The notes beneath the pieces are model-generated. The model saw only the letters and a list, made by a program, of their open reading frames with translations. It did no database searches and was not told the origin of the DNA. A stretch of 64,000 bases of DNA. Origin: an uncultured Planctomycetales bacterium. GTDB lineage: Bacteria; Omnitrophota; Gorgyraeia; Gygaellales; Profunditerraquicolaceae. The stretch covers positions 464-64,463 of the forward strand of contig CAYPRG010000001.1 of the NCBI GenBank assembly GCA_964413025.1, in the 5' to 3' direction. Of the stretch, positions 10,101 through 56,500 are shown piece after piece; the stretch's first letter is position 1, and each line of letters opens with the position of its first letter. The translations under genes and the position numbers were made by a program.

Positions 10101-13100
10101 TCTCATTGTGTTGCTTGCTCCAATTTTGCATGAGTTTTTCTGAAAGCTTGCTCTCCTGCCATACCGCTTTCATCCATACAACACCGATACCCAACTCAGA
10201 AAGCCATTTCCAGAATCCCGCGGGCACCTTATTTATAATCCCGTAAGTGTCGCTTAAAGCGCGACCGTCAATTTCGGTGATTATCTGCGTAGATTCATCA
10301 GCCGGCCTGCGTAATTCACTGCTCAGGATAGTTATGGTAGATATTCTTTTCAGCTCGCGGATATAATTTTCATCAATCTCCACGATATCTTTTAATTCCT
10401 CGACGCCGGAAAGGAATACTTCTAATTCTTTTCTGTGGTCTCTATAATAAATATAAGCCTTGTGGCAAGCGCGCTTATGCGCTTCTTCTGGGGTGCAATG
10501 CAATTCTTCTAACTCTACTGATTCATGGAGTTTAAGATCGGGGAGTATTTTTTGCAGGCGGGGATCTTTAAGCAGCCGATGGATAACAAATACCAGAATA
10601 TCTTCAAATCTTTTGATTTCAAAAAGTTTTCCATTGCTGTCGCCAATAAGCTCAAACCGGGTTTTTACCCGCGGAGGGGCATGGACTAAAATACCTTCCA
10701 GCAACTTAGATATTGCCGGATCCGGCTCTTCTTTTTCCGAAAGCACCTCTGGTTTTTTGATTTCTTTTTTCGCTTTGCCATAGTAACTGCGGAGGCTAAG
10801 AGAGATGTTTCGCCCAGAATCAAAAACCGCCTCTTCTTTATCTATCCCGACATAAATAGGGTGGTATACTTTCGTGTGGAACGGTATCTGTTTCCTCATC
10901 TTATATTCTAACAATTCATCCCTTGTTGCCGAACTTGCGTCTTTGCGGAATATCTCCCACACACACTCGTGAGCATATTCTTCAAGCTCGCCGTTTTTGG
11001 TATTAAATATAAAACTCCTGGGAAGCGTACCCTGATATCGCGAATCATGAAGCAAAGTTTCTTTTATAAAGTCATCCTCTAAATTAAAATTATCGGTCAG
11101 CCATATATGTATAACTTCTTCTTTACCGGGCTTGGTTTTTATTGCCGCGAACATCTCATATATCAAGGTAAAAAGGTCAAAATTATTATTAATGTGGGCA
11201 GCCGCCGCCTCTTTGGTGGCAGGATTGTACATCAATATGCCTCTGCAGGTAGCAATACCGTAACTGGCTAATTTATAATTCTCATCATAAGCATTAGTCA
11301 CCGCCCATTCTCCCTCAATCGCTACCGCGGTATTATCAAAAGGCCTGATCTCTACGTCAAATTCCCTGCGGTCGACCCCGGGATATACCCAGAAAGTGCA
11401 AGCGTACCCCCAAGGAAGACAGTCTGTTTTTCTCCTCCAAAAAATATTTGTGCTATTGAGAAGGTCAGCTATCTTCTCTGTTAACCTGCTGGAAAAATCT
11501 TCTTCTTTTACAAGAAGCCATATCCTGTTCTTGTCCTTCCGGACGACCTCTAACCCGTTCGACGCCGCCAATGTTGGTAAAATAAACTGCCATTCTTTTT
11601 CTGAAACAGACATCTCAATATTTGCTTTTAATTCTGATCTGCCTTTCTTGATGGTTAATAAGCTGCCTATCATTAACCCGGCGGGAAATAAGGTAGGCGA
11701 GTGATTATAGAACAAGACAACCGCGGCCAAGAAAGCTAAGCATAAAAAGATAATCAAGGGGGAGAATGCCTGGCCGGAACGGTTGCCCAATGAAGCGCTC
11801 CTACGCACCAGAGCCTGTTCCATATTCTGCCTTATTTGCGGTTCGATCTTCGCATAGTCAAGGAAAGAGAAATCCGGTTGCCTGTCTTTCAAGTAAAGGC
11901 CGTGTATCTTCGAAGAATCTACCGCCGTCTGGATCATTGCTTCTGATATATAATCCGGGTCGTCTTTATATTCAAAAAGCTCAATTCCGACTTCAGCAAG
12001 GCGCCTTTTGATTTCTTCTTTTGGTACGGCCCTTAATCCTCCCTGATGGTTTATGCAGATATTCATTACGAATTGCGTATTCTTGACAAAATATTCAAAG
12101 AGAGCGCGCTTACCTAAGATTTCCTGCGGCCGGCGGGCTATCCATAAAGCCGCGGTCCTTAATGTTTTTAAACGCAGATAAACGCTACTGATACTACGCT
12201 CCATTATCTCTCCACAATTCATGCGGTATAATTCAACAGAGCCATAGAGCACCTTGCATCTATCGATATCCCTGTCGCATACAGTATTAAAACGGGATAT
12301 CCGCGGGAATATATACGCGGGTATAACATTTAAGGCCACTTCCTTTCCTTCTCTGCCCTGCACAAAAACCCTGCCATCTTTAAATGTTAAAGCCACCCCC
12401 TTCAATACTTTATATGCCGCATCTAAATCTTTTACTACCACCCAATTATCGAAGTCCGCGAATTCATTCTTCTCGCGGGCTGCCGAACCGTATAAGACCA
12501 CTGCTTTTAAATTATCCCCCAATCTTCGCTTAAGCCAATTTATATACCCATAACGCTCCTGTTCCCCCTGGGTAAGACAGGCATTCACAACGTATGTCTC
12601 TTCAGAAACGCAAGCCATAGGCAGAAGCTCAAGATACTTGATCATCCTCTTTTTTATCTCAATGAGCAGGCTCGTAGGATCATCCCTTGAGAAACGATAA
12701 GGCATAAAGGAGGCGTTTTCTCTACGTAAGAGCCCCAGAGCGATAAGCATCGCGGTTATTCTGTTATACACGTATATTTTATTGAGGAAGGTTTTATATA
12801 CGCCCCTGTTCTGGACAATATAGGAATCCATAGTGGCGATCCTCTGCGAGATCTCGGTCTGCAGCTGCAGTATTGCGCGCAATATTTTTTTTCTATAAAA
12901 TATGCCGTTGATGCCGGTCAGCGCGGATAATTTTTCTCTTCCAATATTCTGTTGAAGCTTATTTACTACTGAAGGTAAATATACCGCGAAGTTCCTGATT
13001 TCATCCACAGTCCAGGGTAACGGCAGGGTATCTTCCGGGGTTGTCTTAAGAAGGCCCTTTAGATATGAAGCGGTGGGAGAACCTTTTATAATAATCGTCC

Positions 13101-16100
13101 TAAATGCCCCTACATCATTATATAATGTCTGTCTCCGGAGAGGCTCGGTCCTATCAACAAGCACGCGCGGCGCAGAACTAGCGGAAGATTTGGTATCTTT
13201 AACGTAAAGGCTGAAAGCCCCGGGGAATTCTCTCCTATACAGGTTGGATATTTTCCGTACCGTTTTTAATCTGGTAAAGGAATCGGACATTCCGCATTTG
13301 ACTATAAAAATGACCGAATCCTTGGCTTCTCGTATTATCTTTTCCTCTAATTCTTCCATACCTATGCTATATGGGCCATAGTATAAAAATATGAAGTCAT
13401 AATCCGATATATCTACATTCCTTAAATCCTTATACAGCCACTCCACAGAACCGCTTCTTATTAAATTCTCATCAAGAGCCTGTCTTTCTGATATTTCGAC
13501 TAAGTTCTTAAACCTTTCATCAATTTCTACCCCGGTTGCCTGCGCGCCAAACAGTGCCGCTAAAATGGCTACGCGGCCATCACCGGAGCCGACATCGAGG
13601 AATTTTTTGCCTGGGCAGAGCCCTATCTTCTTAAAAAAACCTGCTACTGTCGCCACGTCCGACGGAAAGAATGTGCCGCCTCTTTCTCGTTGCCCTGGAC
13701 AGGTCCCATCAAAAGGCCTGATGCCTGCCTTATTATCTTTTAGCGTATGATCGCAAATCTGGGAAAGCCTTTTAACTGCTTTATTGTGTTTACTCCTTTC
13801 CCATAACTTGTCCGCATTTACCAACAGGGCAACCAGAGTAGTGCCGATAGGTATTAATATAGCAAGAGGAATAAGCGGGCCTCCGATAAAAATGATTATA
13901 GATAGAGCTATTATTGCTTCGATTGCTACTACGACTCCGAAGAAAGTTAAATTTGTTTTATTTAAAATTAGCCATTTTAAAAGGAGGGCCCCCGGGAAAG
14001 ATAGTAAATGAATGCTTGCTTCAAAGATTTCCTCGAGTTGTTGCCTAGTTAAAGGAAGGGATGAAAATATTGCTGCGCTAAGGAGTAAAACCCCTATGGA
14101 CATGGCAATAAGCAGCGGCGAGAGTGTAAAGCCGGAACGGTTAGCTAATGGATTGGGCCCGCGTTCTTTTTTAGGGTCGCTGTCTTTTTCATGAACAACC
14201 TTAATCGCCCTTTCCACCGGCGGTAATGCATCTTTTTTGCGTGAACCGACTCCGGGCAGCTCCATCTGCCATACACCTTTATCAATCTGCTGTACCTTCA
14301 TTACCTTAGTCATATTCAAAGATGAACCGACTTCCCTAAAGACGCCTTCCAGCTCACGGGCAATATTATGGGAAATAAGCGGATCACCGATTTGCGGCAC
14401 ATTATTTCTTAGTACGCCTGCTAGCAGCTGGACTAATTTCCTGGATGTTCTCCAGTCCAATTTTTTGGTAAAATCATGCTCTAATTCCCTGATATACCTG
14501 GTAATATCAATATTTTGCAAGTGGGCCTGCTTGACTTGATGTTTCTTTATCGCGGGCTTAGCTATGACGCTACGGACAAAAGAGGTTTTAATTTGCTCGG
14601 AATGCGAGACTTCCCTGATTATTGCCCGCATAACCTCTTCATCCGCCAGGACAATCAACCGGGTGCCGTATTCTTCGCTATCCATGGAGGTAACCATCCA
14701 GAAGACCGCTTTGAGGTGTTTCTGTGCCCTTTCCTTCTTCATAAAATCCACTATCGCGTCAAGATGCTCCTGCGTGTATTCAGACCAATTAACAAACTTT
14801 GTCTGGCCTATACAAAATCTGACTTTGCCCAGTGGAAATAATTTAGAATCCCATGTTAGGTCTTTAACGTTTGAATGCCTGGTGCAATAATTATGAATAG
14901 CCAGTTCATTTAAAAATGCCCCCATATCCTTAATATCTAAAATCTTCCTTAGCCGCTCTATTTCCTCTGCGTCTGCTTTAGTAGCAGTAGAAGACTCAAA
15001 AACATACCTTAACAGGTTGTGGGCATAACTAACCACATCTAAATCCCAACAGATGGCGCTTACAAGCATAAAAGCATCTGCCCGGGAAATATCAATGTTA
15101 CATTTACGGTAATCTTCCGCGACCATACTGCAAGTACATGACTCACAAGGCCTTAATAAGAAATCCTTCGGCAGGATAACCCCTTCAGGCACAGAATGAT
15201 GGTCTTTTCCATTAATGACTTCGAACTTCTTCAGCTCATCTCTTTCAACCTTAGTATGATCAAGCGGGATTAACTTTAATTTTTGCCGTATAACCGAAGA
15301 TCTCTCGGATATTTTTTTGATCAGAGGTTCTATTTCTGAATAAAAGATTAAATCGCTCTCTTTAATGCCGCATTTCTCTAAAATATATTTTGACCCGCTA
15401 TCAAGGCCATCCTGGGTAATGGGAATATACTTTATATTCTTAAATTCTGACGGGTATTTTTTAGCAATCTCCCAACAACGGTATGCTTCTCTATCCGCAG
15501 AGACTACTGCATCCGCCTCCGGGTAACGGTGGCCGATGCAGAGGACTATCTCGCCGGCTATCTTCCCCTTATAAACCGCCTTAAGATAAGCCTTTAACTT
15601 TTGCTTACATTCTTTACGATACATTTGAGAAGCAACCGGCTCTTTATAAGCAGGTATGACGCTGATATGATTGTGATTGGCTTTGACAGGATTGGCCTGT
15701 GGTAAATTGTAAACAACCCTGTCCAGATCCTTACTGAGCGTATCCCGGAATATACGGCTTGCCTCTATAAAATTATGCGTGAAATCCAATTCTTCATCCT
15801 TGACTTGGCTCAATAGAAGGATTTTTTTATTGCGCGCCTTATCGTTAAGTTCAGCCGGATTATTATACAATTGCAGGAATTCCCCAAAATCGTTAACCCC
15901 GAGCTGGCCCTTGGTAAGCTGGTAATATCTAAAAACCCAGAGAAACATCTCAAATGACTGCCAGGCAATCGCCGCAGCAAGCAAATTTGGACGATCTTTA
16001 ATAAGATTATAAACGGGTTCGCTGATATAAATCACTCCTCTTCTTAAAGAGTAACGCATATAGAAGAGCCCCTCAGCAGCGTTTCCTGCCAGAAATGGCG

Positions 16101-19100
16101 CTGGCTTTCCTTTTACCTCCAGGGCAACTATGCCAATATTCCTCTCATTCAGGAATTGTTTATATGCCCTCTGCAGTTCCAGTATCGGCAACCCGGTAAA
16201 ATATCCTGCGTAGATTAAGCCGGCAATGACCTGTTCTGATTCTCTCTTTATCCTGATGATAGATTCATCTATGTAATTTTTTTCCTTATAACGCCTGTCT
16301 TCATAGGCTCTCTCGCGAGGCGTAATCTTTATTTTCTTTTCTCCCCACAACAAATACATCGCCCTGCTTCTCTCAACTGCCTTTCTCAAAGTGGACTCAG
16401 GCATCCCTGGCCGCTTCATAAATAATTCATGTATTCCATGAGCTATATCCGCCGGCAGAATATGCGCTAACAACGGCTTTACCTTAACAATGCGCCTGAA
16501 TATTTTTCCGTGGCCATTAGTCCCGTTTATGGCCGCCAAAACATCTTCTTTCTTTATCTCTTTGTTTACTTCTTCAAACAGCTTCTCTATTTTCTCGCGG
16601 GGTATATCAAACTCTACCGTGCTCACTCTGTCGCCCAAATCTATGTTGTATATATGCTGGCCCCAACGCCGCATATGTGAATCTGCATCGTAAGACTGAT
16701 TAGCCAGCTCAATTGACCTCAGGAATATATTCACCACCGGGACAAAACGGCTGAGAAGCATCACCGGATTTACAACCAATGATTTAAATAACCAGTTCTC
16801 ATTAATAGCAACTAGCGCCTTCTTTATCACTTTGAATATGGTGCCATTCATTGAAGTAGGGTTTGTTTCCTCGCTTAGAAAAACGGCTACAACGGAATGA
16901 TTCTTATCCTGGGGAAAATTCTCCTGCTCCAGTAAGTAAATGGGGAAATAACTCTTAGGATGCGCTCCGCCGTCAATCAACCGCCATATCTTATATTCTC
17001 CCTTGTATTTACCTTCCCAAACCACAGGATTAAAAATAATTGGCAGGGACATAGTCGCCCTGATGGCAGTGCTTAAGAGCATATCCGGGCAGTTTTCTGC
17101 ATTCAACTCAAGCAGCTTTCCGGAAGTATGATCTACGGCCGTAACCGTAAGGCTGATAGGGTAACCTGCTTCTTGGAGTTCTCCGAGGGTAGGGATATGG
17201 CTAAATCTATCTTTTATTTTATTTTCTATCCATTCCAGGGCTTTTTCGCCTTTATATATACCTCCCTGGGAAAGCAAATTCCAGACGTTATCAAGGAACC
17301 CTTTCGGCGCGTCCATAAAGGTAGAAATGTTCATACTCAACATTTCTTCTTTTGCCGTTTCCACATCATAACCAAGCAAGACAAACAAACCAAAAATACC
17401 ACCTGCCGAGGTTCCGCCGATTTTATTGATGTAAAAACCCTTACCCGGGCCAAAAAGATTTCCCAACATGCTTAAAAAAGAAGGATAAGCTATACCCTTG
17501 ACTCCGCCTCCCTTAGCCACGCAGTAGGCAAGCGGCCTTTTTCCATCCCTGGATTTATTGATTCTCTGGATTAACTCCTTAATTCTTTCTTTTTTCCATT
17601 TTTTTAATTCGTTTTCAATATATTCGGTGAATTCTTTGGCGGTAGAGTGGAGCGGTTGAAGATTCGCGGAAGCAAGAATTTTTTGAAGCAGGATTAGTAA
17701 TTTTTCCGGAGGGGCATGGCTTTGTAAATACGGCAGATATTGGCTTTTGAGTATTTCCGCCGCGCTTCTATCTGTCTTTAAAAGCCCGCTTAATATCTTC
17801 AGGCACCTATCATAACTATTCCTATTCAACCACTCCAGGAATACCGCTTCTGAAATAACTCCATCCTCCCTGTCCGGATTAACTTTTTTTAAAACACTGT
17901 ACGCCTGCAAAACTTCATCCGGAATACTAACCCCTACAATAAAACCCTTAATTCTGTAAGCAATCAACTTCTCTATCTCTTCTAAACTTAATTTAATAAT
18001 TAGATTTAATAACTCCGGGCTTATTTCGCGTAGCTCTGGCATAGTCGCAGCATAACTGACGCGCTTTACTTCCCAATCTCTATACTCCGGCTCGCTAAAT
18101 ATCTTATCAAGGGTAGCCCTGGCTCTTTTTTGAAATATAGGGCAATGCATAAATATAATAGTCCTGACATTCTCTGGCCCAAAACCATTTTCCCTTAGTA
18201 TTTTTATGCTATTACGGATATTCTCTTCTGTGTTGGTAGATTTATCCTCCACTAAGATTGCGTTTTCAGGGACGCCGTTTTTAATCAGGCTGTCTTTACA
18301 GGATTCTGCCTCGGATATTGTTCCTTCCTTTGTTGCTATTCCCACTCCCCCGGAAACAACTATCATTTTTACCAGCCCCTCTTGATAGATTCCGGCGGCT
18401 TCTTCAGCAATACGCGGCGAATCAAGGCTGCCGGGGATTAATAATACATCCGCCTTTTCTCGCGGCAGTTTTTCTCTCTCAGTAAGAAAAGAAACTATAT
18501 ATCTAAGCGCCTTTTCTTCGCGGGCTTCTTTTTTAAAATCAGCTATGCCTGTGATTAACCCGTGCCAGATACAATATACGCTGAATATGAGCATAGGGAA
18601 GACGAAGAAGACTACTGTCAGGAATAAACAAATATCTTCTCCGCTGATAGAAGATAAACCGCCAAAAGGCATAGCCCAACAAAGAGTTGTTCTTAGTATA
18701 GCCGTTAGAAAAACAACTAAAAATACAATTGCCAGGCCGCGGGTTTTGGAAGCGTTTTCAATAAACCCAAAATTTTTTGCTTGCGCTTTTATTGCTTCTT
18801 CTTCGGTGGGATATTTTTCGTGAATCCTGATCTGTGAAATAATCCAACTTATCTGGTAAAAAGGATAATCCAGGTTATTAAGGATTTGCTCGAGTTCTTC
18901 TTTCTTCGCTTTACTAAAGGTTGTATTTGTAGCAATTTCAAATTTATTTACTAAATTTTTAGCTTTTGAAGTTAATGCCGGTATTAATCTCTCTATCTCT
19001 TTTCTTAATTCCTTTTTCTCTATGGCGGTAAATTCTCTGGATTCACGCAGCAGGCTAAGTTTTTTTAATCTGGGGGGGCCGGTAATTTTGCCTGATTTAA

Positions 19101-20559
19101 TCAGATATACCAGGGCTATCCTGAAGACCGCCTGCCATAATTTCAAAAATGCCTGGCCGATTACGGGTATATTTTTATATCTTAAATATGCCTTAAATAT
19201 TCCCAGGGCAGCCATGGGATGCGTGCCTTTGCGGATTTTTGCCAAGATACTTCTGAATTTACCGGCTTTCGGCTGGCTGTTGGCTTTATCCTTCCGGGCT
19301 TCCTTTTGCGGCTGGGGTGGCTGCTGATCCATGAAAAGGATATTTACTTCGGTATCCTTATCAAAGAAAACCAGTTGATTAGTATTAAAAACAAGGTCCA
19401 ACTCTTGATTTAACTCAAGCTTACTCTCGCTTCCAAGTAAAGCTACAAAAATATGTTTATCATTTTTAAAATGGACTATCTTTTTATCGCCCATATTCTC
19501 TATTATATCCACTTTTCCTTTTACTATATTAACGAGTGAAGTATATTTTGACTCCACAAACATTTTATCCTGGATTTCGTGCGGCCTTATGCCCAAGATA
19601 ATTTCTTTATCTTTATAGGGCGCCAGATAGCTGGCTATTTTATCATCGGTTTTTACCTGGAAGCTCTCGCCGTCAAAATAATAACCATCTTCCCTCTGGA
19701 TAATTTTTCCTTCAAAGAAATTCATTTCCGGAGAGCCGATAAACCCGGCGACAAATTTGTTAACCGGATTTTCAAAAACAACCATTGGCTCACCGATTTG
19801 CTGGATAGCCCCATCTTTCATTACCATTATCCGCGAAGCCATAGTCATAGCTTCTATTTGGTCATGGGTGACATAAATAAAAGTGGTCCCTTTGCCTAAA
19901 CGCTTATGCAGCTTGTTAAGTTCGGTGCGCATCTGGACACGCATCTTAGCGTCTAAGTTACTCAAGGGTTCGTCAAAGAGAAAAACCAGCGGCTGACGCA
20001 CAATGGTGCGCCCCACAGCCACACGCTGCCTCTCCCCTCCGGAGAGCTCGCGCGGCCTGCGGGCAAGCTTATCTACAATAGATAAAATTTGGGCTGCCTC
20101 TGTAACCTTAACTTTGATTATCTCTTTTTTGACTCTTCTTAACTTTAACCCGAAGGCCATATTCTCAAAAACAGTCATATGCGGATATAGAGCGTAATTT
20201 TGAAAAACCATAGCAATGTTACGGTCTTTTGACGGCACATCATTTACTCGTTTATCCCCTATATATACATCTCCTTCGCTTATCTCTTCAAGGCCGGCAA
20301 TCATCCTTAAGGTGGTAGACTTACCGCATCCTGACGGGCCGACTAAAATGAAGAATTCCCCTTCATCCACCCCAAAGTCTATAGATTTGACCGCATAATT
20401 CTTCGGCTCTTTCTTATCTCTTCCGGGATAAATTTTACTTAGCTTAGCAACTCTTACGCTTTTGCCTGAGCTTGAAGTGCTTGTTTTATTTGAATCCACC
20501 GGCAAAAAGTTTGTTTGGCTGGCCTTCTTTGCTTGATGAGCCCTTATCGCCTTGTAAAT
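1..20559 (-). CDS. Giant ORF A, 3' end beyond window position 1. The open frame of >=6,850 codons begins immediately after TAG 20560-20562, and its start codon is unclear.
   Basis: Same minus frame as ORF B. 1-2760 and 19321-20559 were checked contiguously and about 60 other lines sampled, with no in-frame stop. The first in-frame ATG (+20302-20304) lies inside the ABC domain, after its Walker A motif, so it cannot be the native start. Candidate non-ATG starts are GTG at +20497-20499 and TTG at +20503-20505, the latter with a weak AAGAAGG upstream. Confidence 0.7.
   Translation of the reverse strand, partial: [6853 protein letters not shown]
1183..1250 (-). other. Predicted transmembrane segment.
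   Basis: Hydrophobic stretch [22 protein letters not shown] translated from +1183-1250. Confidence 0.5.
4100..6450 (-). repeat. Tandem intragenic protein repeats of about 180 aa (540-nt period), with at least 3 clear copies.
   Basis: The copies are [29 protein letters not shown] (about +4570-4680), [34 protein letters not shown] (about +5110-5220) and [34 protein letters not shown] (about +5650-5760). A weaker copy lies near +6130-6180. Confidence 0.65.
6450..7450 (-). other. Sigma-70 (RpoD-like) domain covering regions 2-4, embedded in the giant ORF.
   Basis: +6901-7020 translates [40 protein letters not shown] (region 2.2-2.4). +6421-6540 translates [30 protein letters not shown] (region 4.2 HTH). 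Both are in the giant frame. Confidence 0.8.
8750..10300 (-). other. GH13 alpha-amylase-family catalytic domain.
   Basis: +9961-10020 translates [18 protein letters not shown] (GH13 region I DxVxNH). +9601-9660 translates [14 protein letters not shown] (region II GFRxDxA, nucleophile region). Upstream is [11 protein letters not shown]. Confidence 0.75.
11660..11760 (-). other. Predicted transmembrane segment.
   Basis: +11701-11760 translates [20 protein letters not shown]. Confidence 0.5.
12300..12650 (-). other. Minimal (Pol-beta-type) nucleotidyltransferase-fold motif.
   Basis: +12421-12540 translates [40 protein letters not shown], matching the hG[GS]x9-13DxD pattern. Confidence 0.5.
13300..13750 (-). 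other. Class I SAM-dependent methyltransferase-like domain.
   Basis: +13561-13620 translates [20 protein letters not shown], the motif I glycine-rich loop. Confidence 0.55.
13800..14200 (-). other. Transmembrane helix cluster.
   Basis: +13861-13920 translates [20 protein letters not shown]; the flanking segments are hydrophobic. Confidence 0.45.
16500..17650 (-). other. Patatin-like phospholipase domain.
   Basis: +17461-17520 translates [20 protein letters not shown] (the GGGxKG oxyanion motif). +17401-17460 translates [21 protein letters not shown] (the GxSxG nucleophile elbow). Confidence 0.7.
17950..18500 (-). other. DUF218 (YdcF/ElyC/SanA-like) domain.
   Basis: +18181-18240 translates [20 protein letters not shown], the conserved STNTxEN motif of DUF218. 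Confidence 0.55.
18550..18760 (-). other. Transmembrane segment(s) between the ABC and DUF218 domains.
   Basis: Hydrophobic translation across +18550-18760. Read by eye only, less carefully verified. Confidence 0.4.
19330..20450 (-). other. MalK/UgpC-type sugar ABC-transporter ATP-binding domain, at the N-terminus of ORF A.
   Basis: Contiguously translated [39 protein letters not shown] (Walker A, +20281-20400). Then [63 protein letters not shown] (signature, Walker B and H-loop, +19861-20060). Then [29 protein letters not shown] (MalK-type C-terminal regulatory domain). Confidence 0.85.
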
Positions 20560-20562
20560 CCT
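20560..20562 (-). other. The single in-frame TAG stop codon separating the two giant open frames.
   Basis: + strand 'cta' at 20560-20562, read in the coding frame as ...[71 protein letters not shown]... Confidence 0.85.
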
Positions 20563-23500
20563 ATAGCCCAAATAAATCAATAACCCGGCGACTAAAACCA
20601 CTTTTACTAAAACTGGGATGCTGCCCAAAACCGGGAATCCGGCGAATAAGAACCCGTTAGCCAGAGAAGAGGGACTTTCACAATCCCGCATTTTATTATA
20701 CTGGTCGTTTAGAGAAGCTTTGTTCGCGCGATAGAAATCAAGAGAAGGCAGCTCTCTCTCATCATTAAGTATCCTCGCCTTCTTTGTATTCGCACGCATG
20801 AAATCATCGATTAAATCAATCCTTAGCTTACCTTGCGAATCTACAGGTAAGAAACGCTCATCAAGCAATGAACGCTTTCCCGAGGCAATATCTTCCCAAT
20901 GTTTCTTCCAATATTCATTACCGCCATTATCATCTCCCAGCAATCTTTCCTGCTTCTGTTTTTCTACTCCGGGATAAGGGAACTTTCTTTTTGCAATCCA
21001 GCTAAGGATTGATTTCTTATCTTTCCTTAATTGTTCCCAGGCAGTTTGCTCTTCCTGCCACTCTTTGCCGACATTAACAAGTTCCTCCCTGATTGTTTTC
21101 CATGTCGTCTTCATATTCCTTGCGATATAAGCACCCTGCCTATCGCCAGTTTCGGGAGTAGGATCATAGGTATAGAAGTAACGCGCTGTTGCATGCAAGA
21201 ATAGGCCATGGATTCCGGCGACTTCCCTGAATTGCTTGGCATTGAATAATTCCGGATATTTGGCATGCAGCCTGACTATCTCAACCCATTCTTTTTGGGC
21301 GTAAATGCCGGCTTTTTCCGCTTCCATAACCGCTTTTTCAAAATCAGGATAAATTCCGCTGGTGGCGATGTAATTGTCAATTACCTGGTGGACCAGATTT
21401 TCATTTTCGGGATAATAATAGTGGAGGATTTCTTCGGCGAGAGTAAGCACTGCCAGTAACGGAGGCGCACGGCTCTGAATGATATTATGTATTTTAATCA
21501 GCATGGCAGAAGCAACGGCTAATCTTTCCAGATCTCCTGTTTCTTCCAGGAAGAGTTGCGGGCGGCTTAATATGCGCGCCAGCAGGTCATATACCCTGGA
21601 ATCGTTCTTTTTGATCAGGAGCAATTCTTTAAGCGCCCGCTTAAGATATCTATCAAGCTTTCGTGGCAGGTTTCCGCTCTGTAAGCCTAAGGTATTTTTG
21701 TAACCATTAGCCTCTAAAGCAACCTCATACTTATTTGCCATATTTATTAAATCCTTCTGGGCTTTTACAAAACAACGCGAGGTATGGAAATTGCTCCTCC
21801 AGATACGGTAATCAAGCGACCCAAAAATATTATCCATCGCCTCAATCGTCTTCAGAAATTCCAAATCAATCTGACCGGAATAAATCTGATCGCAGAGTTT
21901 ATTGAACCGGAATATGTGGTCTACCGTACGCTTATTTGAATACGAAGGCGCGGTGCCGGTAGTCATTAAAAACGCCCAGTCCGAACTCTGAGCAAGGAAA
22001 AGCTCTCTTCCCGTCTGGTTCAATGCCCGCAGGGTAATCTCATCAGGGTTATTAAAACGATTAGCCAGCTCAATCATCTTCTGCGCGGCTTTTAACAGAT
22101 GCCTGTATATCCAGGCATTCCCGCCATTAAGCCAAACCGAGAAATCCCCTTCATTTCCCCAGGAGGAGAGCGCAGGTTCAGAGCGCTGAAGGGTCTTGTT
22201 TTCATCAAGATATTCAGAGATAGTCACCGGCCGCACAGTCCGTTGGTCAAAATGGAACTTGCGCATGACTAGATTGATAAAATCCTGCCCCTCGTACCAC
22301 CAATGGCCGAAAAGTTCAGCGTCGTAAGCGCAGGTAATCAAAGGTTTACTGAAATGCCATGTTTGACATCCTTCTTTTACCCTCTTAAAATGCCCATCCA
22401 GGAATTCCGCCTGTTTGCCTCTGGCCCAGACAAAATTACCAGAGTGGCAATCTACCTTGCTAGCTGCCCATCCCGGATGATAATATGCTTTCTGGTTAAG
22501 CGGCACATTTTTTCCGGTAATACGGAAATATTTAAGCCCAATCGCGTGCGGCCCTACATTTCTGAAATAATTATTGAGGCATCCGCTATCTCCATCATAG
22601 CCTAAATCGCGGTGAAATTCCTTGTAATCGGGATCTCCGGGGTAACCTCCGTCACGCGACCAGATACACTCTCTAGTCTCAGGGTCACGGCTGACAGCCA
22701 CGCATCCCGCGGGAGTAATCACGGGAGCATAGGCGGCGTAACCGGAATCAAGATGGCGGCCGAATACAGGTTTGGGATTAGCGTAGCTCAAAGTATGCAT
22801 ATCGGTCAAAAAGAAATTTATCCCCGCTTCTCTTAAGAAAACATCGAGACCAGGGTAATATGCGCATTCAGGCAACCATATACCTCTGGGAGAACATCCG
22901 AAAACTTCTTTATACTGGCTGACGGCTTGAGCCAGTTGCGCCCGTACCGCCTCAGGAAATGAATTCATTAAAGGTAAAAATCCGTGGGTAGCTGCGCAAG
23001 TGATAATCTCAATAAAACCTAAATCCTGGAAACGGCGGTAAGCCCGGGTAAAGTCCTTTTCATAACGCAGGAAAATTTCCTTGCTTTGCTTAAACTGCTC
23101 AAGATGAATCTGCACTGTATGCTCCCAGGGAGACTTATTGCGCCTGGCATTCTCGTATTCACATTCAGCGAGTTTAATCAACTCGTTTATATGCCTTAAG
23201 GTGCGCTCCTGCAGGAGCGGGTCGCGCATCATGCTTAAAAGCGGCGGGCTCAAAGAAACCGTCATCCGGAAATCCACGCCATCTTTCAGCCAAGATTCAA
23301 AATTAGCGATCTCTCTAGCGTAGACCTCAATCACAGCCTCAAAATACCACCATTCTTCAAGAAAATTATCGTATTCAGGGTGGCGCACAAAAGGAAGATG
23401 ATGATGAAGGACTAACGCCAAGTTAGCTTTTTCTGCGTAGTTATCAAGACGCGCATCGTGAAGGCCACGATAATGTTTAACCGGCGGGTCAGGGGTAAAA

Positions 23501-44500: not shown

Positions 44501-47500
44501 TTTTCGGTTAACGCCTGGTTCGCTTGCAGATATTCCTCTTTATGCGCTCCTTTATAATCAACTTTTCTTCCGCCTAATTTGGGGGTTAGAGCAATAGACT
44601 TAACCTGGTCATTATGGACATAAAGAATGAGGTTATTCTGGCCTTGCAAGATATAATCTATGCCGGTCTTACCTAAAAGACTACACATCGCCAGGTCACC
44701 TGCCGAAGCAGGCGCTGAACGGGGCAGATAATCTAATTTTCCGGCCAGGCTTATGCTGATTCCTTCTTTCTTCAGGGGGGCTTTAAGCGCAGCGGCAATG
44801 ATGCGGCCGGCATCTTCTAATTTGGGATGGCCAAACTGGTCTAAAGATTTTCCGCCCACTTCAAAGAAGGCGGCTTTGGCAACGTAGTCTTTTTCAAAGG
44901 CCTTATCCAAAATTAATTTGTTACCGCTGAAATTAGGATTTATTTTTATGCCTTCCGAAACCACTACTACCGCATAGTCATATTTTTTATGATAATCTGC
45001 AATGTCTTTGGCGAGCTGAGCCAGGTCGAGATTTTCTTCTTCAGGGATGAGGGTACGGCTTGCCTTGACACGAGCGCCTATCCGCAGAGCAGCAAAGCCG
45101 GCATTCCGGCCAAAGACTTCTACTACCAACACGCGAGCAGTAGACTTTGCATCTACGACCCCACCTTCCAGCAACTTGGCTGCGGCCTCAGTAAAGCTTG
45201 AGAATCCGTAAGTATCGGCATCGGGCTCAGGAAGATTCAAATCATTATCCATAGTCTTGGGAAGGCCGATAAGAAGGAATTCCGGATGCTCTTCATGGAG
45301 TTGATAAGTAACACTATTAGTATCATCTCCTCCGAGAGTAAGCAGGCCGTCTAATTTCAAGCGCTGGATATTCTGCCAGAGTAATTGCGGCTGGTTTAGA
45401 TTTATCCCTTCTTCGCTATAAGGATTAAATCTTTCCGTGCCTAAGATCGTCCCGCCTTCAAAACGATGCGCCTCTACTTCTTGCAGATTTAAAGGTTGTG
45501 CCTGAGCCACTAAGCTTTCTTCTACCAAGCCCTTCCAGCCCATTTTTATACCGATAAGTTCTATTCCGTTATTTTGGGCTTCAGCCAAAGCAGAATAAAT
45601 CACCTCGTTATGCCCTGAAGCCGGGCCGCCGCCGGTCAGAATACCCAAACGTTTAACAAAACGAATTTCAGGATAGTATTGCCTAGCAACACTTTTAACT
45701 TCTTCGGCAATGTCTTGAGGAACTATTAAGCTAGTTTTCTTAACAGAAACCGTAGAACTCCTTTCAAGCTCGTCTTTATAACTCCTAACATTCTCTCCGC
45801 TAACCCATTCTTCAATTTTAACCTTATCCCCAAATTTTTCCTGCAGTTTTTCTCTTAAGCCATATGGCAATGGCTGAGAAGACCAGCTAGATGTCCCATA
45901 GAAATCATAATCCTCTGTATATTCCCGGTCAGGCAAATAAATCTCAATAGCATTATCATCTATTTTTATACAGCCCATTAGAGTTTGGGATACCTCCAAG
46001 CTTATGGCTTTTTGTTGCAAATTTTTCTGTAATTCTGAAATTACTCTGTTACTATTTGACTGTTTTTCAAAAAAGAACCTGAATAAATCTTCTGTGAATT
46101 CTTCGGGCCTATTCTTTAACCACGCCAGCGTATTATCAAGATCTGACCATTTGATATCTTCAACTTCCCATTTTCCGGGTTCCTTTTCATTGCGCCCTTT
46201 TAGTTCCTCTTTAATTTTTCCTGAATCATTATTTAAACTCGAACGGATTTCCTGAAGCAAACTGGCCTTAGTTTTGACTCGTACTTCTTCTTTAGAATTC
46301 AAGATAAGTATGTAAAGCGCTCTTCTTTCTCTATTATTGTCTTCTCTTACATTATAAATATATTCACCAGCTGTCCCTATCGGAATAAGCCTTCCCTTAA
46401 TAGATTCCCTTAAGGCTTCGTTGATTTCCTTTTCTTCGTATATATCCGCTTCTTCAATCACTTCTCTCACCGCGGAATTCAGATAATCTGAACCGACAGA
46501 TACATGCCCGCCGAAAATAGTCCATAAATGAGGGAACTTCTTAAATCCTGCGCGCTGCTGAAGTATTAACTCAAACTTAGAACTGACAAGAATAATATTA
46601 GTAGTTCGATGAAAAAGGCCTGCCGCCTCAGCTATGTTTCTATCTGCTTGACCTACTATCTTCTCTTTCTCAAACCCTATCTCTGATTCTGGACTTAATA
46701 TATCTATCATTTCTCCTTTTAGTTCTTCTGGCTGCTTAATTTCAGCAGTTTTTGAAAAACCTAAAAGCTTTTGGACCCAGTCAGAAAGCGTATTCTGCGT
46801 AACCTGATATGCAGCCCGGGCAGCCCGCAAGATGCGCTCTTCAATCCCCATGTTTATGGCTTTGTAAAGAGCCTCGACTATTTCTTCCTGTTTATAGGGG
46901 TCGACACCGAGCGTGCCGCTATCTACTTCCTGATATGCGCCCATATTCTTTGAAGCAATGATAGAAGCTGGCTGCAATATAACTCTTTGTTTCTTATAAT
47001 GATAGGAACGCAGTGCATGGTTTGCCTCTGCTATGACGAATGGGTCGTTCAAAGCAGCAAAAACCTTGACTACCAGATTCATACCATCGCGCAGAGAATT
47101 CACGATGGCAGCATCACAAGCCAAGCATAACCCCACCCACTCATCAATCGGGAACAGATTCACTACGATAATCGGCCAATCTTTATCAAAACAATTCTGC
47201 CAATCATCCTCTGTTTCGATTATTCCGTTCCAAGAAATTTCCGGAGAAAACTCCTTATTTATCCCGATAACGAGCTCTTTAACCTGTCTCACCATTTCCT
47301 GATACTGCGGGATATTTAACCGCGAAGGTATAAGCCAAGTGATAAAAGAGAGTTTATTCCTTAAGTCCGGATGCCTCTCCAGAAGCGTGCGGAAAGCGGT
47401 CAAACCTTCTATAATCCCCTTGGTCAATTCTGTGCGCTCAGCCCTGCCGATAATGAATTTATCTTTGGCCTTCATTTTTAATTTTTGCGCTAACGATAAT

Positions 47501-50500
47501 ACGGGAAGGCTTAACGCTTTCTCCCTGAAGAGGTCGAAATCGCACGAAATCGGGTTGGCTTTGACCAAAACCTGGCGACCGGCATAAATAACCATACCCG
47601 TATCGCGTTCACACACTGCCCCTAATAATTTTTCGCATGCGTCTATAAAGTTGTTGACGTAAGACTGCGCGCTGAACACTACCGAATTATTAGACAACAT
47701 GCCTTCAAGAATCTCGCGTAAAATTTCTTTGGGCACCGTAACCTCAAGGTAATCCAGCGACGGCCAAGGTACGTGTATAAAGTGGTCGGTATAAACTGCG
47801 GGATACATAAAACGCAATTCAAGAGGAGCCAGATAAACATGATAGTCATGGAAAGATACACGGGCATGAGGAACCGTATTTATCAGTTGCGCGATTATCT
47901 GGCCGAAGCGGCGGTTAACCGCCTTGTAATCGCGATACCCTGCGATAATCTCAGGAGTGAAAGCGCCGCTCATCTCATGATGCGCCAGCCAAAGAGCAGG
48001 ATTGGCTACTATATTATAGAACCGGTTAAATTCCGCATCAGGATGCAGTACATACTTAACCCATATGTTGTTATCAAATTTAACCAGCATCTCTTCTCTA
48101 GCAATCGCTTTTTCTTCCTCGGTCATAGCCGCACAGACAATAATCCCGCCTCCGCTAGCCATGAGTAAACGATATAAAGGATATGCAACAGCGCCGTTAT
48201 CTTTACACATAACAACTTCGCCATCCCTAGAAATAATCCTCGCCATTCCTTTGTTATAGAGAACAATCGATGGCGTTGGCCCCAAGTCTGAAATGACAAA
48301 ATCCAGGGACGCCTTAATCAGCGAGGCGGATAAGCATCCGCTGGTCAATACTTGGTTAGAAATCGAGCGTATCCAGGGATGTTTACTGTAAGCGAAATTC
48401 CCTGCGGAAACCAAGAGCTTTGCGCACAACGACTCATCTGAAATAGAACATCTTAATCTCCTTACGCCTTCAAGAGCGGTATATACCAGGTATTCAGGGG
48501 CATACTCTGTGGAAAGAATGGTTTTATGGACAAAACTTAGGATTTTTTCTGTCCGCTTAGGGTTAGCAAAAGCGCTCCGTAGAAGGATTCGCAAGATATA
48601 ATGCCCTTCTATGGCTTCGGGAATGTTATGCAGTTGAACGCCCTTATTAAATCTCAGGAGGAACTGCAAACGCCATTCCAGGCGATCCTCAAAAATGTCG
48701 ATATTCCTTTCGATAAATTCCATTACCGCAGCACAGTCAAATACAGAGGAATACCCTAACCGTTGTATCAACCTGTCTTTTTTCTCAATGGTGCGGCATA
48801 GTTCATAATCTGTCCTTAATAAAGTCAAGAGGATATCTTTACGGGTGGCGGCGTGTTCCTGAACGTAAGAAGCTATTTCTGACGGCATTACGCCCTCCGG
48901 CCCTTCCTCGCAGACAAATATACGGGATTTCCAGAAGCCATCGCTATAACGTGGAGAGTGCACTCTCCACATAGGGATTATTGAACCGTTATAAATATAT
49001 ACCAGCTGCTTATCTACCAATTCCAAGAGGGCCTGCCGGAATTCAGATTCGGTGCCCTTAGGAATAATATATGTATTTTTTGCCGTATATGAAAATCTAT
49101 CCAAAGATATTGCTAAATTCCGCGCCTCTTCGCTCAATCGTAATTGAGCGTAGTTATCCACGGCCTCTTTCAATAATTTATAAGCCTTCCCCCGCTGGGC
49201 ATCATTAGTCAAAAGCATCTCTACCTGCTCAAGGCTAATATCTCCAGACAGCAATAAAGTCCGGATCCGGCCGATATATTTTGAATTTATTTCTTCGCCT
49301 ATACCTCGCAATCCGCTATCTTTAATAAGCGCTCCGGGCGTCTTTAGTCCTCCGTTTTCATAAATTGTAATCCGCTCCTTATCTTCTTTAAGGAATTGAC
49401 CCTCAATATCCCGTATTTGTTCATAAGGTAATAACTGCGGGTAAGTATTTGTATTGTTCAGGTTAAGGCCGTCCATGGCTAACCATCCCGCAAATTGAGA
49501 AGCTAGGCCGGACATTTCCTTTTCCTCGACTCCTTTAAGATAAACATATAAATCATCGATATCGCTACCTCTGACCATAACGCCTCGGGCGAAAGAACAA
49601 ACTGCCGTATTTATAGCGACAATTTGAGCTTTGGGATTGTTTTCTTTAATAGCTGCCTCAAGTTTTTTTGTCGCAGAAACAAACTGCTTATAAACTTGGG
49701 GAGTAATATCTAACATTCTGGGATGTTCTTTTTCTATGCTTTGGCTATGTTTAATAGCTATGGGAAGGTTGAGATAATAATGTAGCGCGGTTGTAAGAAT
49801 AAAGGCGGGAATTAAATAGGTATATCCGGACAGGAATATTGATGAAGCAGCAAAATTTACTAAAGCAACGGTCATTGCACCATCCAGAGGAGGCGCCTGA
49901 GGCATATTAGAGGTCCTGAATTTCTCCAGATGCAGCAGAATAAATATGGACCAGCTCAATGCCCATGCCCAGAGGCTCCCTAGCGCCGGCGTCAAGGCTA
50001 AAGCAGCGCCCCAGAATATTACCTGCTCAATTAATGCCTGATACCCTAACGGAACGCCCACTCTATCCAACGCCCAGCTTAAAGCAGGAATCATTGCTGT
50101 GCCCAGAATCTCGTTTCCTCCATTTTTTTGCTCACATTCCAACGCTCTCGTCTTCTCTTCAGTCATGCCAGCCCAAACCCTAATCAACCCCTTGGCTTGA
50201 TTTCTTATGTCTCCCTGGGTCATGCCCATTTTTAAAGAATTGTAAGCAACTATACCGTAATTTTCCGGATTTTTGTAATCTTCACAGGCTTCTTCTAATT
50301 GTTTCATAAAAGATTCTTTACTCGGCCTGGTTTCGCCGTCACTGCCGGGGTGCTTTTCATATTCCACAAGATAACCGGTGCCGCTGATTATCTGGCCTTT
50401 ATCATTTCTTACTATCGGCTTTAATCTTTCAGGAATAACTCCGTCTGGAGTAGCGAAAATCGGCGCCCCATTTAACTGAGCATTTCCAACACTTGTTGGC

Positions 50501-53500: not shown

Positions 53501-56500
53501 GCGATTATAATGATTGTACTAATAACGATTATGCTAAGAATAATATTGTTAATAACTTCATCTTTTAAATTCTGAAATACCGTTACCCTGAGCCACTTCG
53601 CCACCAATATCATCAAAATGGCACTACCCATAACCTTACTAACTCCTTTATATAGTGAATATATTATTACCTTACGTATAATAGAAACTAATCTTGCAAC
53701 AAAAAAACCAACCAAAATCGGACCTATAACCAGAACTATAAATGACGCAATCCCCCAGAAAATCATCGAAAGGAAAGATATATCGTTACTTCCTTGCTCC
53801 AAGGGGCCGCTTTTGCCAGCGCAACCATTTAAGAACATCATTGAGCCTAAAAAAAGAAAAGCTAAAATAATTTTATTAGAATTGTCAGAAGCAAAGTTTT
53901 TAACTTCCGGGGATTTAATTACTGTGTTTTCGATGCCACGGATGTAGCCAAACTTATCTCCAGTCGTAATAAGCTTTACTTGTCTTACTCCTATTTGCCC
54001 GATCTCTACTTCGCGTAATCCTTTAATCTTCTCGTGTAGCTGTTTAAATTCTTCCGGAGTAATCTTGTTTACAATTCTTCCCAGGCTAATATGCACTAAT
54101 GGCGTATAGTGCTTATTATCTGAAAATTCTTTATATAATTTTTCTCTCAATTCAAATATCTTCTCGTCATCAACATGCCCCTGGACGAATATTGCTCCAT
54201 CAAAACCTAAATTTATGCCCTCGAATCTTATTTTGATTGGACCAACACTAGCCATAATCTTTTCTATTGTTTCGGCTATCTTCCCATTAACCTGGAACAT
54301 ATTATTGCAGTCGTTGATTAAGCTCGAAAACAAGCTGGTATGCAATAAATCACTAGGGATTAATTCTAATGCAGGGTAGACTTTCTGAATTTCTTTTCCG
54401 ATAAACGACAATTTATTAATTAATTTCTCACCTAAACCAGCACGATCTACACTTAGAGCTATTGATTGCAGTGCGGAATTTTGTAATGGCTTAGGTGTTT
54501 TGCCTTGTGCTACCATTTCGCCAGTCGCCTGCCAAATACTTCCATAAGCCTCTTCTAAACTGGTTTTATCTTTAATTAAAAGGGATTTTCTCGGTTTTTC
54601 ATCAGCTTCGTGGTTATTTTCTTTTTCAGCAATAACTGAAGAAGATTTGTCGGAAACGTTTGCTCTGGTTTGTCTTTTCCAAGAAGGAAGAGCAAAGCGG
54701 GTGATATCTTCTCCTATATATTCTCCGTGGCTACAATCGGATGGAGAAAATAGACAATCACTTACAGAATCATCCCATTCAAACCAATTACAGTCATGCG
54801 GAATCATTGGAGCAATTGGGTATTGACTTTCAGAAGCTTCTTTCTTATGCTTAGCTACTAACATTTTTTCAGTATCTTTGTCATAGGCAGGGCATTTATA
54901 TAGTTTACGACTTACTACTTCAACATTTTGTCCTACTAAAGCGATTTCATCCTTAAGTTCTTGCTCTAATTGTTCAATGGAATTCGAACGTTCAAGCATT
55001 TCGGGCAAGGCATTTCTTAATTCACTATCTTCCAATTTCTTACCTCTGGCTTCCTTAAACCATAGCGAAATAAGCCTAGCCACCCCTAAGGATTTTTCTA
55101 ATCTTTCTGGCGTAATATTGAACTTTATTACTATCTTTTTCAAATCTCTCAATAATTCTTCTCCATCATTCCTTCTCTCTAAAACACTTGCAAATTCTTC
55201 TAAACAGCAGATATTTGTTTCATATTCTATTAAATTCTTTGATATTCCAAGAGAAATGGGAACCCCGATTTTAAGAATAAAATCAGGGTTTATATCTTTG
55301 CCAATCAGCCTAACCCCCATATTTATCGTAATCTCAAGCCACTTAGATTCGCTTTTTGTTTCTAATAATTCGACTAAATCTACAATATACCCAAAATACA
55401 TTGATTTTTTTTCTAATTTATCTAGTAATAATTTAATGGAAGGATATTTTATCAAAACTAATCTTAATTTTATTTCCCTATTTTTTGAATGGTTCATTGA
55501 TAGGGTGTTTAAAAGGAATTGCAATAATTTTCTGTTCGAAAGTTCTGCCTCCGGAATTCCATACCTACACAGAGATAAAGCTATTTCTACCCTGACATCC
55601 AAATTCGGGCTCTCCGAAGCTTTAAGATAACCTCCCAATATTTGTTCTCTAGTTGCACCTAGTTTAGCTAACGACTCTGCAGCTTCCCACACTCCACAAC
55701 CTAGTGCTATAACGAGAGCCTCAATGGCTCTTTTATCATTAATTTCTCCCAAAAATTTTGCTGCATAATTACAAACATTTATATGAGGGTCGCGCAATTT
55801 TATCAAAAGCACACTAAACAACTGTTCTTTAGCTTCTAACGACGTCAGTGCTTCAAAACAGCTTCTTGCTACTTCGTAACACTGAGTTTCATTTAACGCA
55901 GAAAGTAGCTCCGGGATAGCTCGCTTATCTTTCGAGCGTCCCAAGAAAGTAACGGCCATACGAACAACTCTGTAATTACTATCATTTAGCGCCTCAATAT
56001 TTGAATCTACGCTGAAACCTGCAGGGTTAGAACATCCAACGCATTCCAATGTTTTACTAAAATTAATATAATTCACATAACCTAATTCTACTGTTTCATA
56101 AGAATGGGGTTTGGCTTCGTCATCTGACAATCCCCAATATTCTTTTTCATCAGCACTTATTATCGCATCCTTCCTAAACACCCTCCATTTATATCCTCCC
56201 CCTAAACATGACTGCACATATCTTACAACTCTATACTGGTCAGCTTTTTTGGTTTCTTTTAATGTTTTTTTCTCTATAACTATCTTATTAAAGATTTCAT
56301 TCAAGAACCTCCTAGTTGCGGATATTGGCATATCTTTATCCATACTTATGCTAAGAATTATCTTAGTAAATTCTAACATGGCGCTTATAGGAGCATCTTT
56401 ACTTGACCATATTAATTGCTTACCGTTTGAATTCATCCATTCAATCCATTTATGGGTTCCGATTTCTAAAATTTCTATATTCCTCTTGTAATATTCAACA

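Follow-up and report, generated by a model that had tools for sequence, protein, structure and literature searches.

What is encoded by a stretch of DNA in which one frame runs for 64,000 nucleotides without a stop codon, and do the nucleotide-handling domains scattered along this frame act together? The stretch, below called the window, is the region from position 464 to 64,463 of contig CAYPRG010000001.1 (assembly GCA_964413025.1). A preliminary description listed a dense set of nucleotide-processing and second-messenger domains interspersed with metabolic enzymes in a giant protein, and suggested that these domains resemble modules generating and erasing nucleotide signals, with built-in regulatory, toxin or conflict-related functions. 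The interspersed arrangement is borne out by the domain map presented here. The window probably encodes the middle part of a mosaic giant protein that is anchored in the membrane, exceeds 21,333 residues, and belongs to the kind described in Omnitrophota as 'Archaeovorins' or 'multi-enzyme metabolic clusters'. Its dominant theme is the metabolism of alpha- and beta-glucans and trehalose, and the most economical reading of the nucleotide-related modules is that they are independently recruited add-ons which do not work together in signalling or defence.

The giant reading frame

The minus-strand frame covering positions 1-63999 consists of 21,333 codons, contains no stops, and is open at both window ends. 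Each of the other five frames contains between 720 and 1949 stops. Thus the window is an internal piece of one giant frame. The mechanically compiled list of open reading frames (ORFs) contains only four short ones, because this frame has no stop over 64,000 bases. All coordinates below are those of the window, and all features are on the minus strand; residue k of the frame starts at window coordinate 63999-3(k-1).

The GC content of the codon positions follows the order GC1>GC3>GC2 uniformly along the whole frame. Shine-Dalgarno boxes followed by ATG or GTG codons were found at 14 sites in frame, compared to 22 and 11 in the two out-of-frame counts. As the composition is uniform and such sites are not enriched in frame, nothing suggests separately initiated genes, and internal genes of this type were rejected.

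About 30 hydrophobic 19-mers (mean Kyte-Doolittle value at least 1.9; a hydropathy estimate) are scattered between the modules. Three lipoprotein-type signal peptides lie inside the frame, at about positions 57258, 56949 and 53832 (residues 2248, 2351 and 3390, respectively). Each has an n-region with lysine or arginine, a hydrophobic core, a lipobox (LVGC, LSGC or LNGC), and a Gly/Ser/Thr-rich stretch following the latter. These lipoboxes could be sites of processing by signal peptidase II within the giant polypeptide.

Relatives of the window

Among the named relatives of the region of residues 16620-17420, the four closest (45-80% identity) belong to Candidatus Omnitrophota and come from metagenome-assembled genomes, which speaks for an affinity of the window with this group. 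One relative (P0010) is colinear with residues 16079-17084 at 45% identity. The closest one (L008) is colinear with residues 16960-18145 in one frame, at 72-80% identity. At about position 1877-1879 of the latter, where the window has a cysteine codon TGC (11245-11247), there is a single in-frame TGA, at which the ORF was divided in gene calling. After the TGA, both the frame and the similarity run on for 576 more codons. Selenocysteine was considered and rejected: there is no convincing downstream hairpin (-7.3 kcal/mol), and the TGA was taken to be a point difference or an error.

A further relative (GCA_026387355.1, JAPLLW010000017.1; below, L007) occupies a 105-kb contig with one frame annotated as three pieces of 19,622, 1,361 and 10,971 codons (approximately 32,000 codons together). 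Within the 24 kb examined, the only interruptions of this frame are a run of 28 N, which accounts for the first split, and a single TAG. The domains of L007 include SLOG, PALP, sigma-70 (a sigma-70-like module at 9060-9878), the same nucleotidyltransferase (NTase) module as in the window, glucosamine-6-phosphate isomerase, PAS, a trypsin-like domain, HATPase_c, M48 and GT1. Thus it is another multi-enzyme giant with a different order of modules. The comparison of domain order with other giant genes, proposed in the preliminary description, recovers the shared NTase module in L007, but the order as such is not conserved in this relative at 50% identity.

Free-standing versions of some modules also exist. 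They are a protein of 829 residues (P0004), a number of NTase-family proteins of about 450 residues (P0014 and similar ones), and methyltransferases of about 180 residues. Thus at least three modules of the window, namely the transmembrane-HEAT-CCA-like module, the ANT-like NTase and the Dot1-like methyltransferase, occur also as ordinary free-standing genes.

One possibility is that the single gene is an artefact, that is, separate genes have been wrongly joined or short motifs match by chance. The free-standing homologues and the three internal signal peptides speak for this, and so do the splits that gene callers made in the frames of the relatives, at TGA, TAG or runs of N. Moreover, two of the loose motifs considered below, Pol-beta and HxS/T, occur at chance frequency. 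However, 21,333 stop-free codons are not possible by chance at 42% GC, and sequencing errors would create stops, not abolish them. The uniform composition and the lack of in-frame enrichment of start sites also argue against joined genes, the same frame is kept across module borders in the relatives, and the main domains have E-values from 1e-10 to 1e-246. We consider an artefact very improbable.

Domain composition and carbohydrate metabolism

The frame was scanned against Pfam in overlapping tiles of 2,500 residues, and again in tiles of 1,000 residues with E-values up to 1. The resulting map was supplemented by NCBIfam and PDB sequence searches. From the N-terminus, it begins with a weak UDPGP-like stretch, GNAT, HEAT repeats, a 2H candidate, HEAT repeats, a GT5/phosphorylase-like module, GT20 and Nudix. 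These are followed by phosphofructokinase (PFK), GNAT, a P-loop kinase-like stretch, GH161, HEAT, GGDEF and MraZ, and then by PGM/PMM domains I-IV, HEAT, a CCA-like NTase and the succession DUF4912-GH57-BE_C. The next modules are a MalK-type ABC ATPase, DUF218, patatin, DHH/DHHA2 and an S-adenosylmethionine (SAM) methyltransferase. The C-terminal part contains a Pol-beta NTase, alpha-amylase, peptidase C92, sigma-70 regions 2-4 and a GH2-like barrel. About half of the 21,000 residues can be assigned, which makes this frame a well-resolved example of a giant Omnitrophota gene. One polypeptide would carry complete gene-sized enzyme modules, with HEAT-repeat scaffolds and hydrophobic anchors in between.

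The carbohydrate set dominates. It comprises the GT5/GT35-like module, GT20, GH161, PGM, the GH57 branching enzyme, GH13, the MalK-type ATPase and a pyrophosphate (PPi)-type PFK. The GT5 match is weak (Pfam E-value 0.001). The trehalose-6-phosphate-synthase-like GT20 module (residues 5290-5746; 46762-48132) has a Pfam E-value of 8e-72, and the PFK module (residues 6117-6364; 44908-45651) one of 8e-48. The latter contains GGDD and PKTMDND, which we take to be the PPi-type signature from general knowledge of PFK residues 104 and 124. The stretch of 1,060 residues at 7432-8491 (38527-41706), which has no Pfam match, is a full-length GH161 beta-1,3-glucan phosphorylase aligned over positions 3-1031 of 1039 (PDB 9h8v and 9qqk, 2.5e-246). 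The MalK-type ATPase has intact Walker A and B motifs, LSGGE and H-loop.

The DHH/DHHA2 module (residues 16152-16598; 14206-15546) resembles a family II inorganic pyrophosphatase. The NCBIfam match to PRK05427 (2e-22) covers positions 4-272 of 308 with 80 bits against an equivalog cut-off of 283. The motifs HxxPExD, DHH and SRKK are present, and the last of these is presumably significant for family II inorganic pyrophosphatases. By these signs the module looks like a Mn-dependent inorganic pyrophosphatase, and not like a nanoRNase or a cyclic-dinucleotide phosphodiesterase. Together with the PPi-type PFK signature it suggests that pyrophosphate is a theme of the carbohydrate set. This module, the full-length GH161 phosphorylase and the MalK-type ATPase were missed in the preliminary description.

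Comparison with published giant proteins

Giant ORFs have been reported across Omnitrophota (Seymour et al. 2023), and they rank with the longest reading frames known. In the 'Archaeovorins' of this group, HEAT is the most frequent domain, the other domains include GT5, PGM, methyltransferases, NUDIX, GNAT and GGDEF, genes encoding PilZ lie downstream, and a methyltransferase module was modelled on PDB 5BXY (West-Roberts et al. 2023, bioRxiv 10.1101/2023.11.21.568195). The 'class 1 multi-enzyme metabolic clusters' combine sugar-metabolism, kinase, methyltransferase, NUDIX and HEAT domains (Nielsen & Lui 2026, bioRxiv 10.64898/2026.06.07.730766).

With these proteins the window shares an ORF of more than 20,000 codons, numerous hydrophobic segments and HEAT_2 scaffolds that recur along the chain, as well as GT5/starch-synthase-like, PGM/PMM, NUDIX, GGDEF, GNAT and 5BXY-like methyltransferase modules. 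Thus the recurrent Pfam components of the domain list, NUDIX, GGDEF, methyltransferase and GNAT, have already been published for Omnitrophota giants. Unlike the proteins described there, the 64-kb window contains no C39 or S8 peptidase, TPR or dockerin that could be seen. Genes for PilZ and type II secretion, which accompany such giants, would lie beyond the window, as the frame runs off both of its ends. On the other hand, the CCA-like and ANT-like NTases and sigma-70 of the window do not appear in the matched passages on Archaeovorins and class 1 clusters, and the words 'nucleotidyltransferase' and 'sigma' have no occurrences in both bioRxiv papers. GH161 and MraZ are likewise absent from these passages, although no search was aimed at them.

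Nucleotide-related modules

The strongest of the nucleotide-related modules is GGDEF (residues 10574-10737; 31789-32280). It matches the Pfam model over positions 1-161 of 161 (3e-47) and NCBIfam TIGR00254 (1e-50). The motif GGEEF, noted already in the preliminary description, is preceded by an RRPD I-site five residues upstream, and the substrate and metal residues DIDHFK..ND..GD (LDIDHFKSINDTYGHPAGD) are all present. The module appears to be a genuine second-messenger enzyme, and an apparently active one: a diguanylate cyclase that also carries the I-site. With GGDEF proteins of the PleD type it shares the full-length domain, GGEEF, DxD..ND..GD and the RxxD I-site at the same distance; unlike them, it has no receiver, PAS or GAF sensor. 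Instead, it is preceded by a domain of about 130 residues and directly followed by MraZ. The former domain stands before both GGDEF and PGM (residues 10438-10567 and 11129-11262). The cyclase would produce cyclic di-GMP (c-di-GMP), presumably read by PilZ proteins, whose genes lie downstream of such giants according to the literature.

Two families of NTases are seen. The first one forms a module of approximately 470 residues (16941-17410; 11770-13179) with an ANT/KNTase-like Pol-beta core, identified by homologues, an AlphaFold model and Foldseek. Its Pol-beta motif YGSAAREKNEFADFD is at residue 17171, and GS...DxD spans residues 17171-17185. A full HMMER scan with residues 16620-17420 produced 603 relatives. 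In the family, G231, S232, D242, D244, K279 and K366 are invariant, and GS/DxD is retained in 27 homologues down to 24% identity. This family of about 450 residues has no Pfam model: NTP_transf_2 touches one of 27 members, the window sequence itself does not match it, and a single-sequence PDB search with the region around residue 17171 gave only chance-level matches. The AlphaFold (AF2) model is of high quality (predicted local distance difference test, pLDDT, 90.3; predicted template modelling score, pTM, 0.90), and its top Foldseek matches are ANT(9), AadA, ANT(6) and KNTase, with probability 0.99-1.0.

In this model, the fold shared with these resistance-type enzymes covers module residues ~190-470, together with the GS...DxD motif. 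In contrast to them, the window module, which shares 9-16% sequence identity with them, carries an additional N-terminal domain of about 190 residues, and is embedded in a giant protein with no resistance context. In an Omnitrophota protein of 1,293 residues an ANT-like module follows a Sec-type signal peptide. A free-standing homologue of 483 residues (L005; JGI 3300033143, Ga0366829_1000187) adjoins genes for CDC48, an archaeal-type helicase and a RadA/KaiC-like protein, which suggests that the family is present in archaea as well.

The second family is CCA-like. Residues 12499-13148 (24556-26505) contain HEAT repeats followed by a head-neck NTase similar to CCA/poly(A) polymerases, and are colinear, at 35-45% identity, with the stand-alone transmembrane-HEAT-CCA-like gene P0004 from marine-sediment metagenomes. 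The motif GGAVRD...DID at residue 12916 (GGAVRDIFFSNESGDID), with a chance expectation of 0.01, is invariant in five sequences, the window and four homologues. The hidden Markov model (HMM) matches cover about 35-50 residues, and the NCBIfam CCA model (2e-5) aligns to the head only. The family profile matches residues 118-165 of the human CCA enzyme with an E-value of about 0.03. The AlphaFold model from five sequences is poor (pLDDT 54.7), and its top PDB fold matches are mostly CCA-adding enzymes with non-significant E-values of 0.4-0.9, so this is a weak pointer.

The head motif GGxVRD...DxD is shared with class II CCA-adding enzymes and PcnB, and the neck-like VRIVGEG..F..GDILRLLRLKHQFGL aligns to the same residues 118-165. 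Unlike CCA-adding enzymes, however, the module of about 260 residues consists of head and neck without the tRNA-binding body and tail domains, and always stands behind transmembrane and HEAT segments. It has no recognisable RRD-type motif, and the EDxxR position reads GDILR. Given the lack of these motifs and of the body and tail, the module ranks as a head-neck relative and not as a CCA-adding enzyme. Thus, of the initial assignment to CCA/poly(A)-polymerase-type NTases, the head motif is retained with moderate support, whereas neither a full-length HMM match nor the body and tail were found. Neither of the two families is covered by Pfam, and both recur in these giant proteins.

Two further Pol-beta NTases had been predicted in addition to the CCA-like one. 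The motif at residue 17171 is that of the ANT-like family. The other, CSFARGVMVRGSDIDD at residues 4795-4830 (49510-49617), is a motif only: residues 4802-4822 have no HMM or PDB match, a homologue search with residues 4650-5250 was empty, and the loose Pol-beta motif occurs six times in the frame compared to five expected by chance. This candidate is therefore unsupported. The same applies to the predicted HxGH nucleotidyltransferase, as H.GH is absent from the frame, relaxed variants do not occur in a suitable context, and CTP_transf_like gives no match.

The Nudix module (residues 5796-5930; 46210-46614) directly follows GT20. The Pfam match (residues 5796-5853; 2e-7) is above the cut-off, with 31 bits against 21, and covers profile positions 2-58 of 134, that is, the N-terminal half only. 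The nearest named models are YfcD (NCBIfam, 4e-9) and IPP isomerase. In the Nudix box (GX5EX7REUXEEXGU), REVIEE is kept, with Gly or Ser at the position of the first Glu and Asp at that of the last Gly. By this score and REVIEE the module is probably a Nudix domain, though only half of it is aligned.

Two other candidates are weaker. The putative 2H phosphoesterase (residues 3205-3345; 53965-54387) is defined by LHTSL at 3219 and VHISL at 3303, 84 residues apart. Pfam 2_5_RNA_ligase2 matches it in one of 22 tiles with E-value 0.02 and 15.4 bits, the cut-off being 27; the frame contains one such HxS/T pair, compared to 0.39 expected by chance. The region has no NCBIfam match and no homologues, and the PDB search gave chance-level matches only. 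The P-loop kinase-like module (residues 7170-7420; 41740-42492) contains GASGSGKT at residue 7181. It matches the NCBIfam models PRK07667 kinase (8e-7) and udk (3e-5) over some 45 residues around the P-loop only; the E-values for PDB 1rz3 and Pfam PRK are 0.02 and 0.1, respectively.

The methyltransferase and acetyltransferase modules are of another kind. The class I SAM methyltransferase at residues 16760-16920 (13240-13722), with the motif FLDVGSGDG, produces weak matches when taken alone. The profile of its family of 41 sequences, however, matches aKMT4 (5fa8/5jwj, 3e-19), 5bxy (4e-19) and Dot1, and Pfam DOT1 is matched by 32 of the 41 members. By these matches, it most likely methylates proteins and is not a nucleotide enzyme. 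It shares with aKMT4 and Dot1 the class I SAM fold and DxGxGxG, and the match to 5fa8/5jwj extends over nearly the whole chain; unlike them, it is one module within a giant polypeptide. Of the two SAM methyltransferase motifs reported initially, this one is real, but the stretch at residues 9349-9404 (35788-35955) is unsupported, with a partial match to Methyltransf_23 (E-value 0.009) and chance-level matches only in the PDB sequence search. The two GNAT acetyltransferases, at residues 6707-6785 (43645-43881; Acetyltransf_7 5e-11, Acetyltransf_1 2e-10) and 2091-2190 (57430-57729; Pfam Acetyltransf_1 5e-13), are both real, although the second one lies 3 kb outside the region 12300-54500 in which both had been placed. 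The methyltransferase and the two GNATs are probably modifiers of proteins or small molecules, not nucleotide enzymes.

Overall, about half of the nucleotide-handling domains of the preliminary description are real, and four of eleven motif calls fail or remain below threshold. At the level of catalytic residues, GGDEF and the Pol-beta NTase are intact, but the Nudix box has two substitutions and the CCA-like module lacks EDxxR.

A more general alternative is that most of the embedded modules have no catalytic function and are relics or scaffolds for binding, so that the domain list would tell little about chemistry. Several modules are indeed very divergent or incomplete: only the first half of Nudix is matched, the CCA-like module has neither the RRD-type motif nor body and tail, the kinase is reduced to a P-loop, and the NCBIfam scores are far under the equivalog cut-offs. 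On the other hand, GGDEF, MalK, patatin, DHH, PFK and GH161 all retain their catalytic residues, the last with the near-complete match given above, and the invariance of the NTase GS/DxD among distant homologues also argues against relics. We regard wholesale loss of activity as unlikely. Entire and, to judge by their sequences, apparently active proteins are embedded in the frame, including the GH161 phosphorylase, the sigma factor and MraZ.

Signalling device or independent recruitment

Nucleotide-centred conflict and defence systems include CBASS, Pycsar, Thoeris and Hailong, as well as the NTase/2H/Nudix/SLOG networks of Burroughs and Aravind. SLOG and Zeta-toxin domain types also occur in systems of this kind. 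The window shares with them the broad superfamilies, that is, Pol-beta NTase, possibly 2H, Nudix and P-loop kinase. Unlike these systems, it shows neither a profile match to their specific families nor adjacent generator, sensor and effector, and its modules are interleaved with carbohydrate enzymes.

If the NTases, the kinase and GGDEF generated nucleotide signals, and 2H, Nudix and DHH erased them, the giant protein would contain a built-in signalling or conflict circuit. Several observations fit this scheme. GGDEF is intact and has the I-site, the two NTase families retain invariant catalytic motifs, the model of the ANT-like module matches Hailong HalB (probability 0.8-0.87) and MntA, the PADLOC model PDC-S09 matches the NTase motif with 6e-6, and L007 contains SLOG and Zeta-toxin-like stretches. 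However, in ten segments scanned with PADLOC there was no convincing or significant match to a defence system, cyclase or effector: the hits are generic or sub-domain ones, namely mads_2 (a generic methyltransferase), the Cas10 palm (due to the GGDEF fold) and PDC-S09 itself, which covers 40 residues. None of the Pfam scans of the frame revealed an EAL or HD-GYP domain, and DHH is pyrophosphatase-like. The 2H and kinase calls are below threshold, and one NTase and HxGH fail. The modules, scattered over some 14,000 residues, are separated from one another by stretches of 500-4,000 residues that include unrelated carbohydrate enzymes and hydrophobic segments. Their order is not kept in the relative at 50% identity.

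Since four of the calls fail or stay below threshold, PADLOC and Pfam provide no convincing systems or phosphodiesterases, DHH is assigned otherwise, the methyltransferase and the GNATs do not count as nucleotide enzymes, the modules are scattered, and those that could be traced have free-standing homologues, the suggested combination of NTase, 2H, Nudix and kinase into a module generating and erasing signals is unsupported, and such a circuit seems improbable. The resemblance to HalB and MntA and the SLOG and Zeta-toxin-like stretches of the relative lend it weak residual support. A built-in regulatory function holds for the diguanylate cyclase only, whereas the toxin or conflict part of the suggestion is otherwise unsupported. 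For the initial observation the value of this analysis is thus mainly corrective: the list was partly right, and no nucleotide-signalling or conflict system emerges from it.

The reading as independently recruited add-ons would divide the modules into three groups. The first one would consist of the diguanylate cyclase, as the sole genuine second-messenger enzyme. The second one would serve the housekeeping of sugar nucleotides and pyrophosphate and include Nudix by GT20, DHH/DHHA2, the P-loop kinase by GH161 and the UDPGP-like stretch; indeed, Nudix directly follows GT20, which uses nucleoside diphosphate sugars, and the kinase-like stretch directly precedes GH161. The third group would be formed by modifiers, namely the two GNATs, the Dot1/aKMT4-like methyltransferase, the ANT/KNTase-like NTase, the CCA-like head-neck NTase and, possibly, 2H.

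Several points weigh against this reading and against the description of the window as part of a membrane-anchored Omnitrophota giant. The ANT-like fold resembles also HalB and MntA, at a lower rank than the resistance-type enzymes, and L007 carries SLOG and a weak Zeta-toxin-like stretch. The role of Nudix in sugar-nucleotide metabolism is an argument from adjacency, while the models that it matches best are YfcD and IPP isomerase. The Omnitrophota origin rests on the relatives. SecA-DEAD, a divergent domain reported for most full-length giants, was not seen in the 64-kb window, and the ends of the gene are outside it. Finally, hydrophobic-segment counting and positive-inside counts disagree on the membrane topology. 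A placement of the NTase modules outside the cell by the count of hydrophobic segments was considered and rejected, since the positive-inside counts contradict simple parity.

Another possibility concerns the place of action. The CCA-like and ANT-like NTases could be effectors of an episymbiont, displayed on the surface or delivered, which would nucleotidylate molecules of a host or prey, or make a signal that is removed by 2H and Nudix. In this case the giant protein would carry a nucleotide-based device for host manipulation beside the glycan machinery. We consider this rather speculative and, like the signalling circuit, improbable.

Other modules

MraZ (residues 10751-10870; 31390-31749) matches TIGR00242 over positions 2-126 of 144 (6.5e-16) and Pfam MraZ (1e-11), and is fused straight after GGDEF. 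The sigma-70 module, with regions 2-4, is at 6454-7113. Thus complete DNA-binding regulators sit inside a membrane-anchored giant protein.

The patatin-like phospholipase (16963-17514) has intact GGGxxG, GTSAG and DGG motifs. A YiiX/C92 permuted papain-like amidase was found at 8032-8352. These two modules could serve a predatory or episymbiotic cell in lysis or as effectors.

Repeated domains were also observed. A domain of approximately 160 residues is present in three copies (residues 14911-15077, 19976-20114 and 20589-20740), and tandem units of about 175 residues follow the sigma-70 module (residues 19305-19866).

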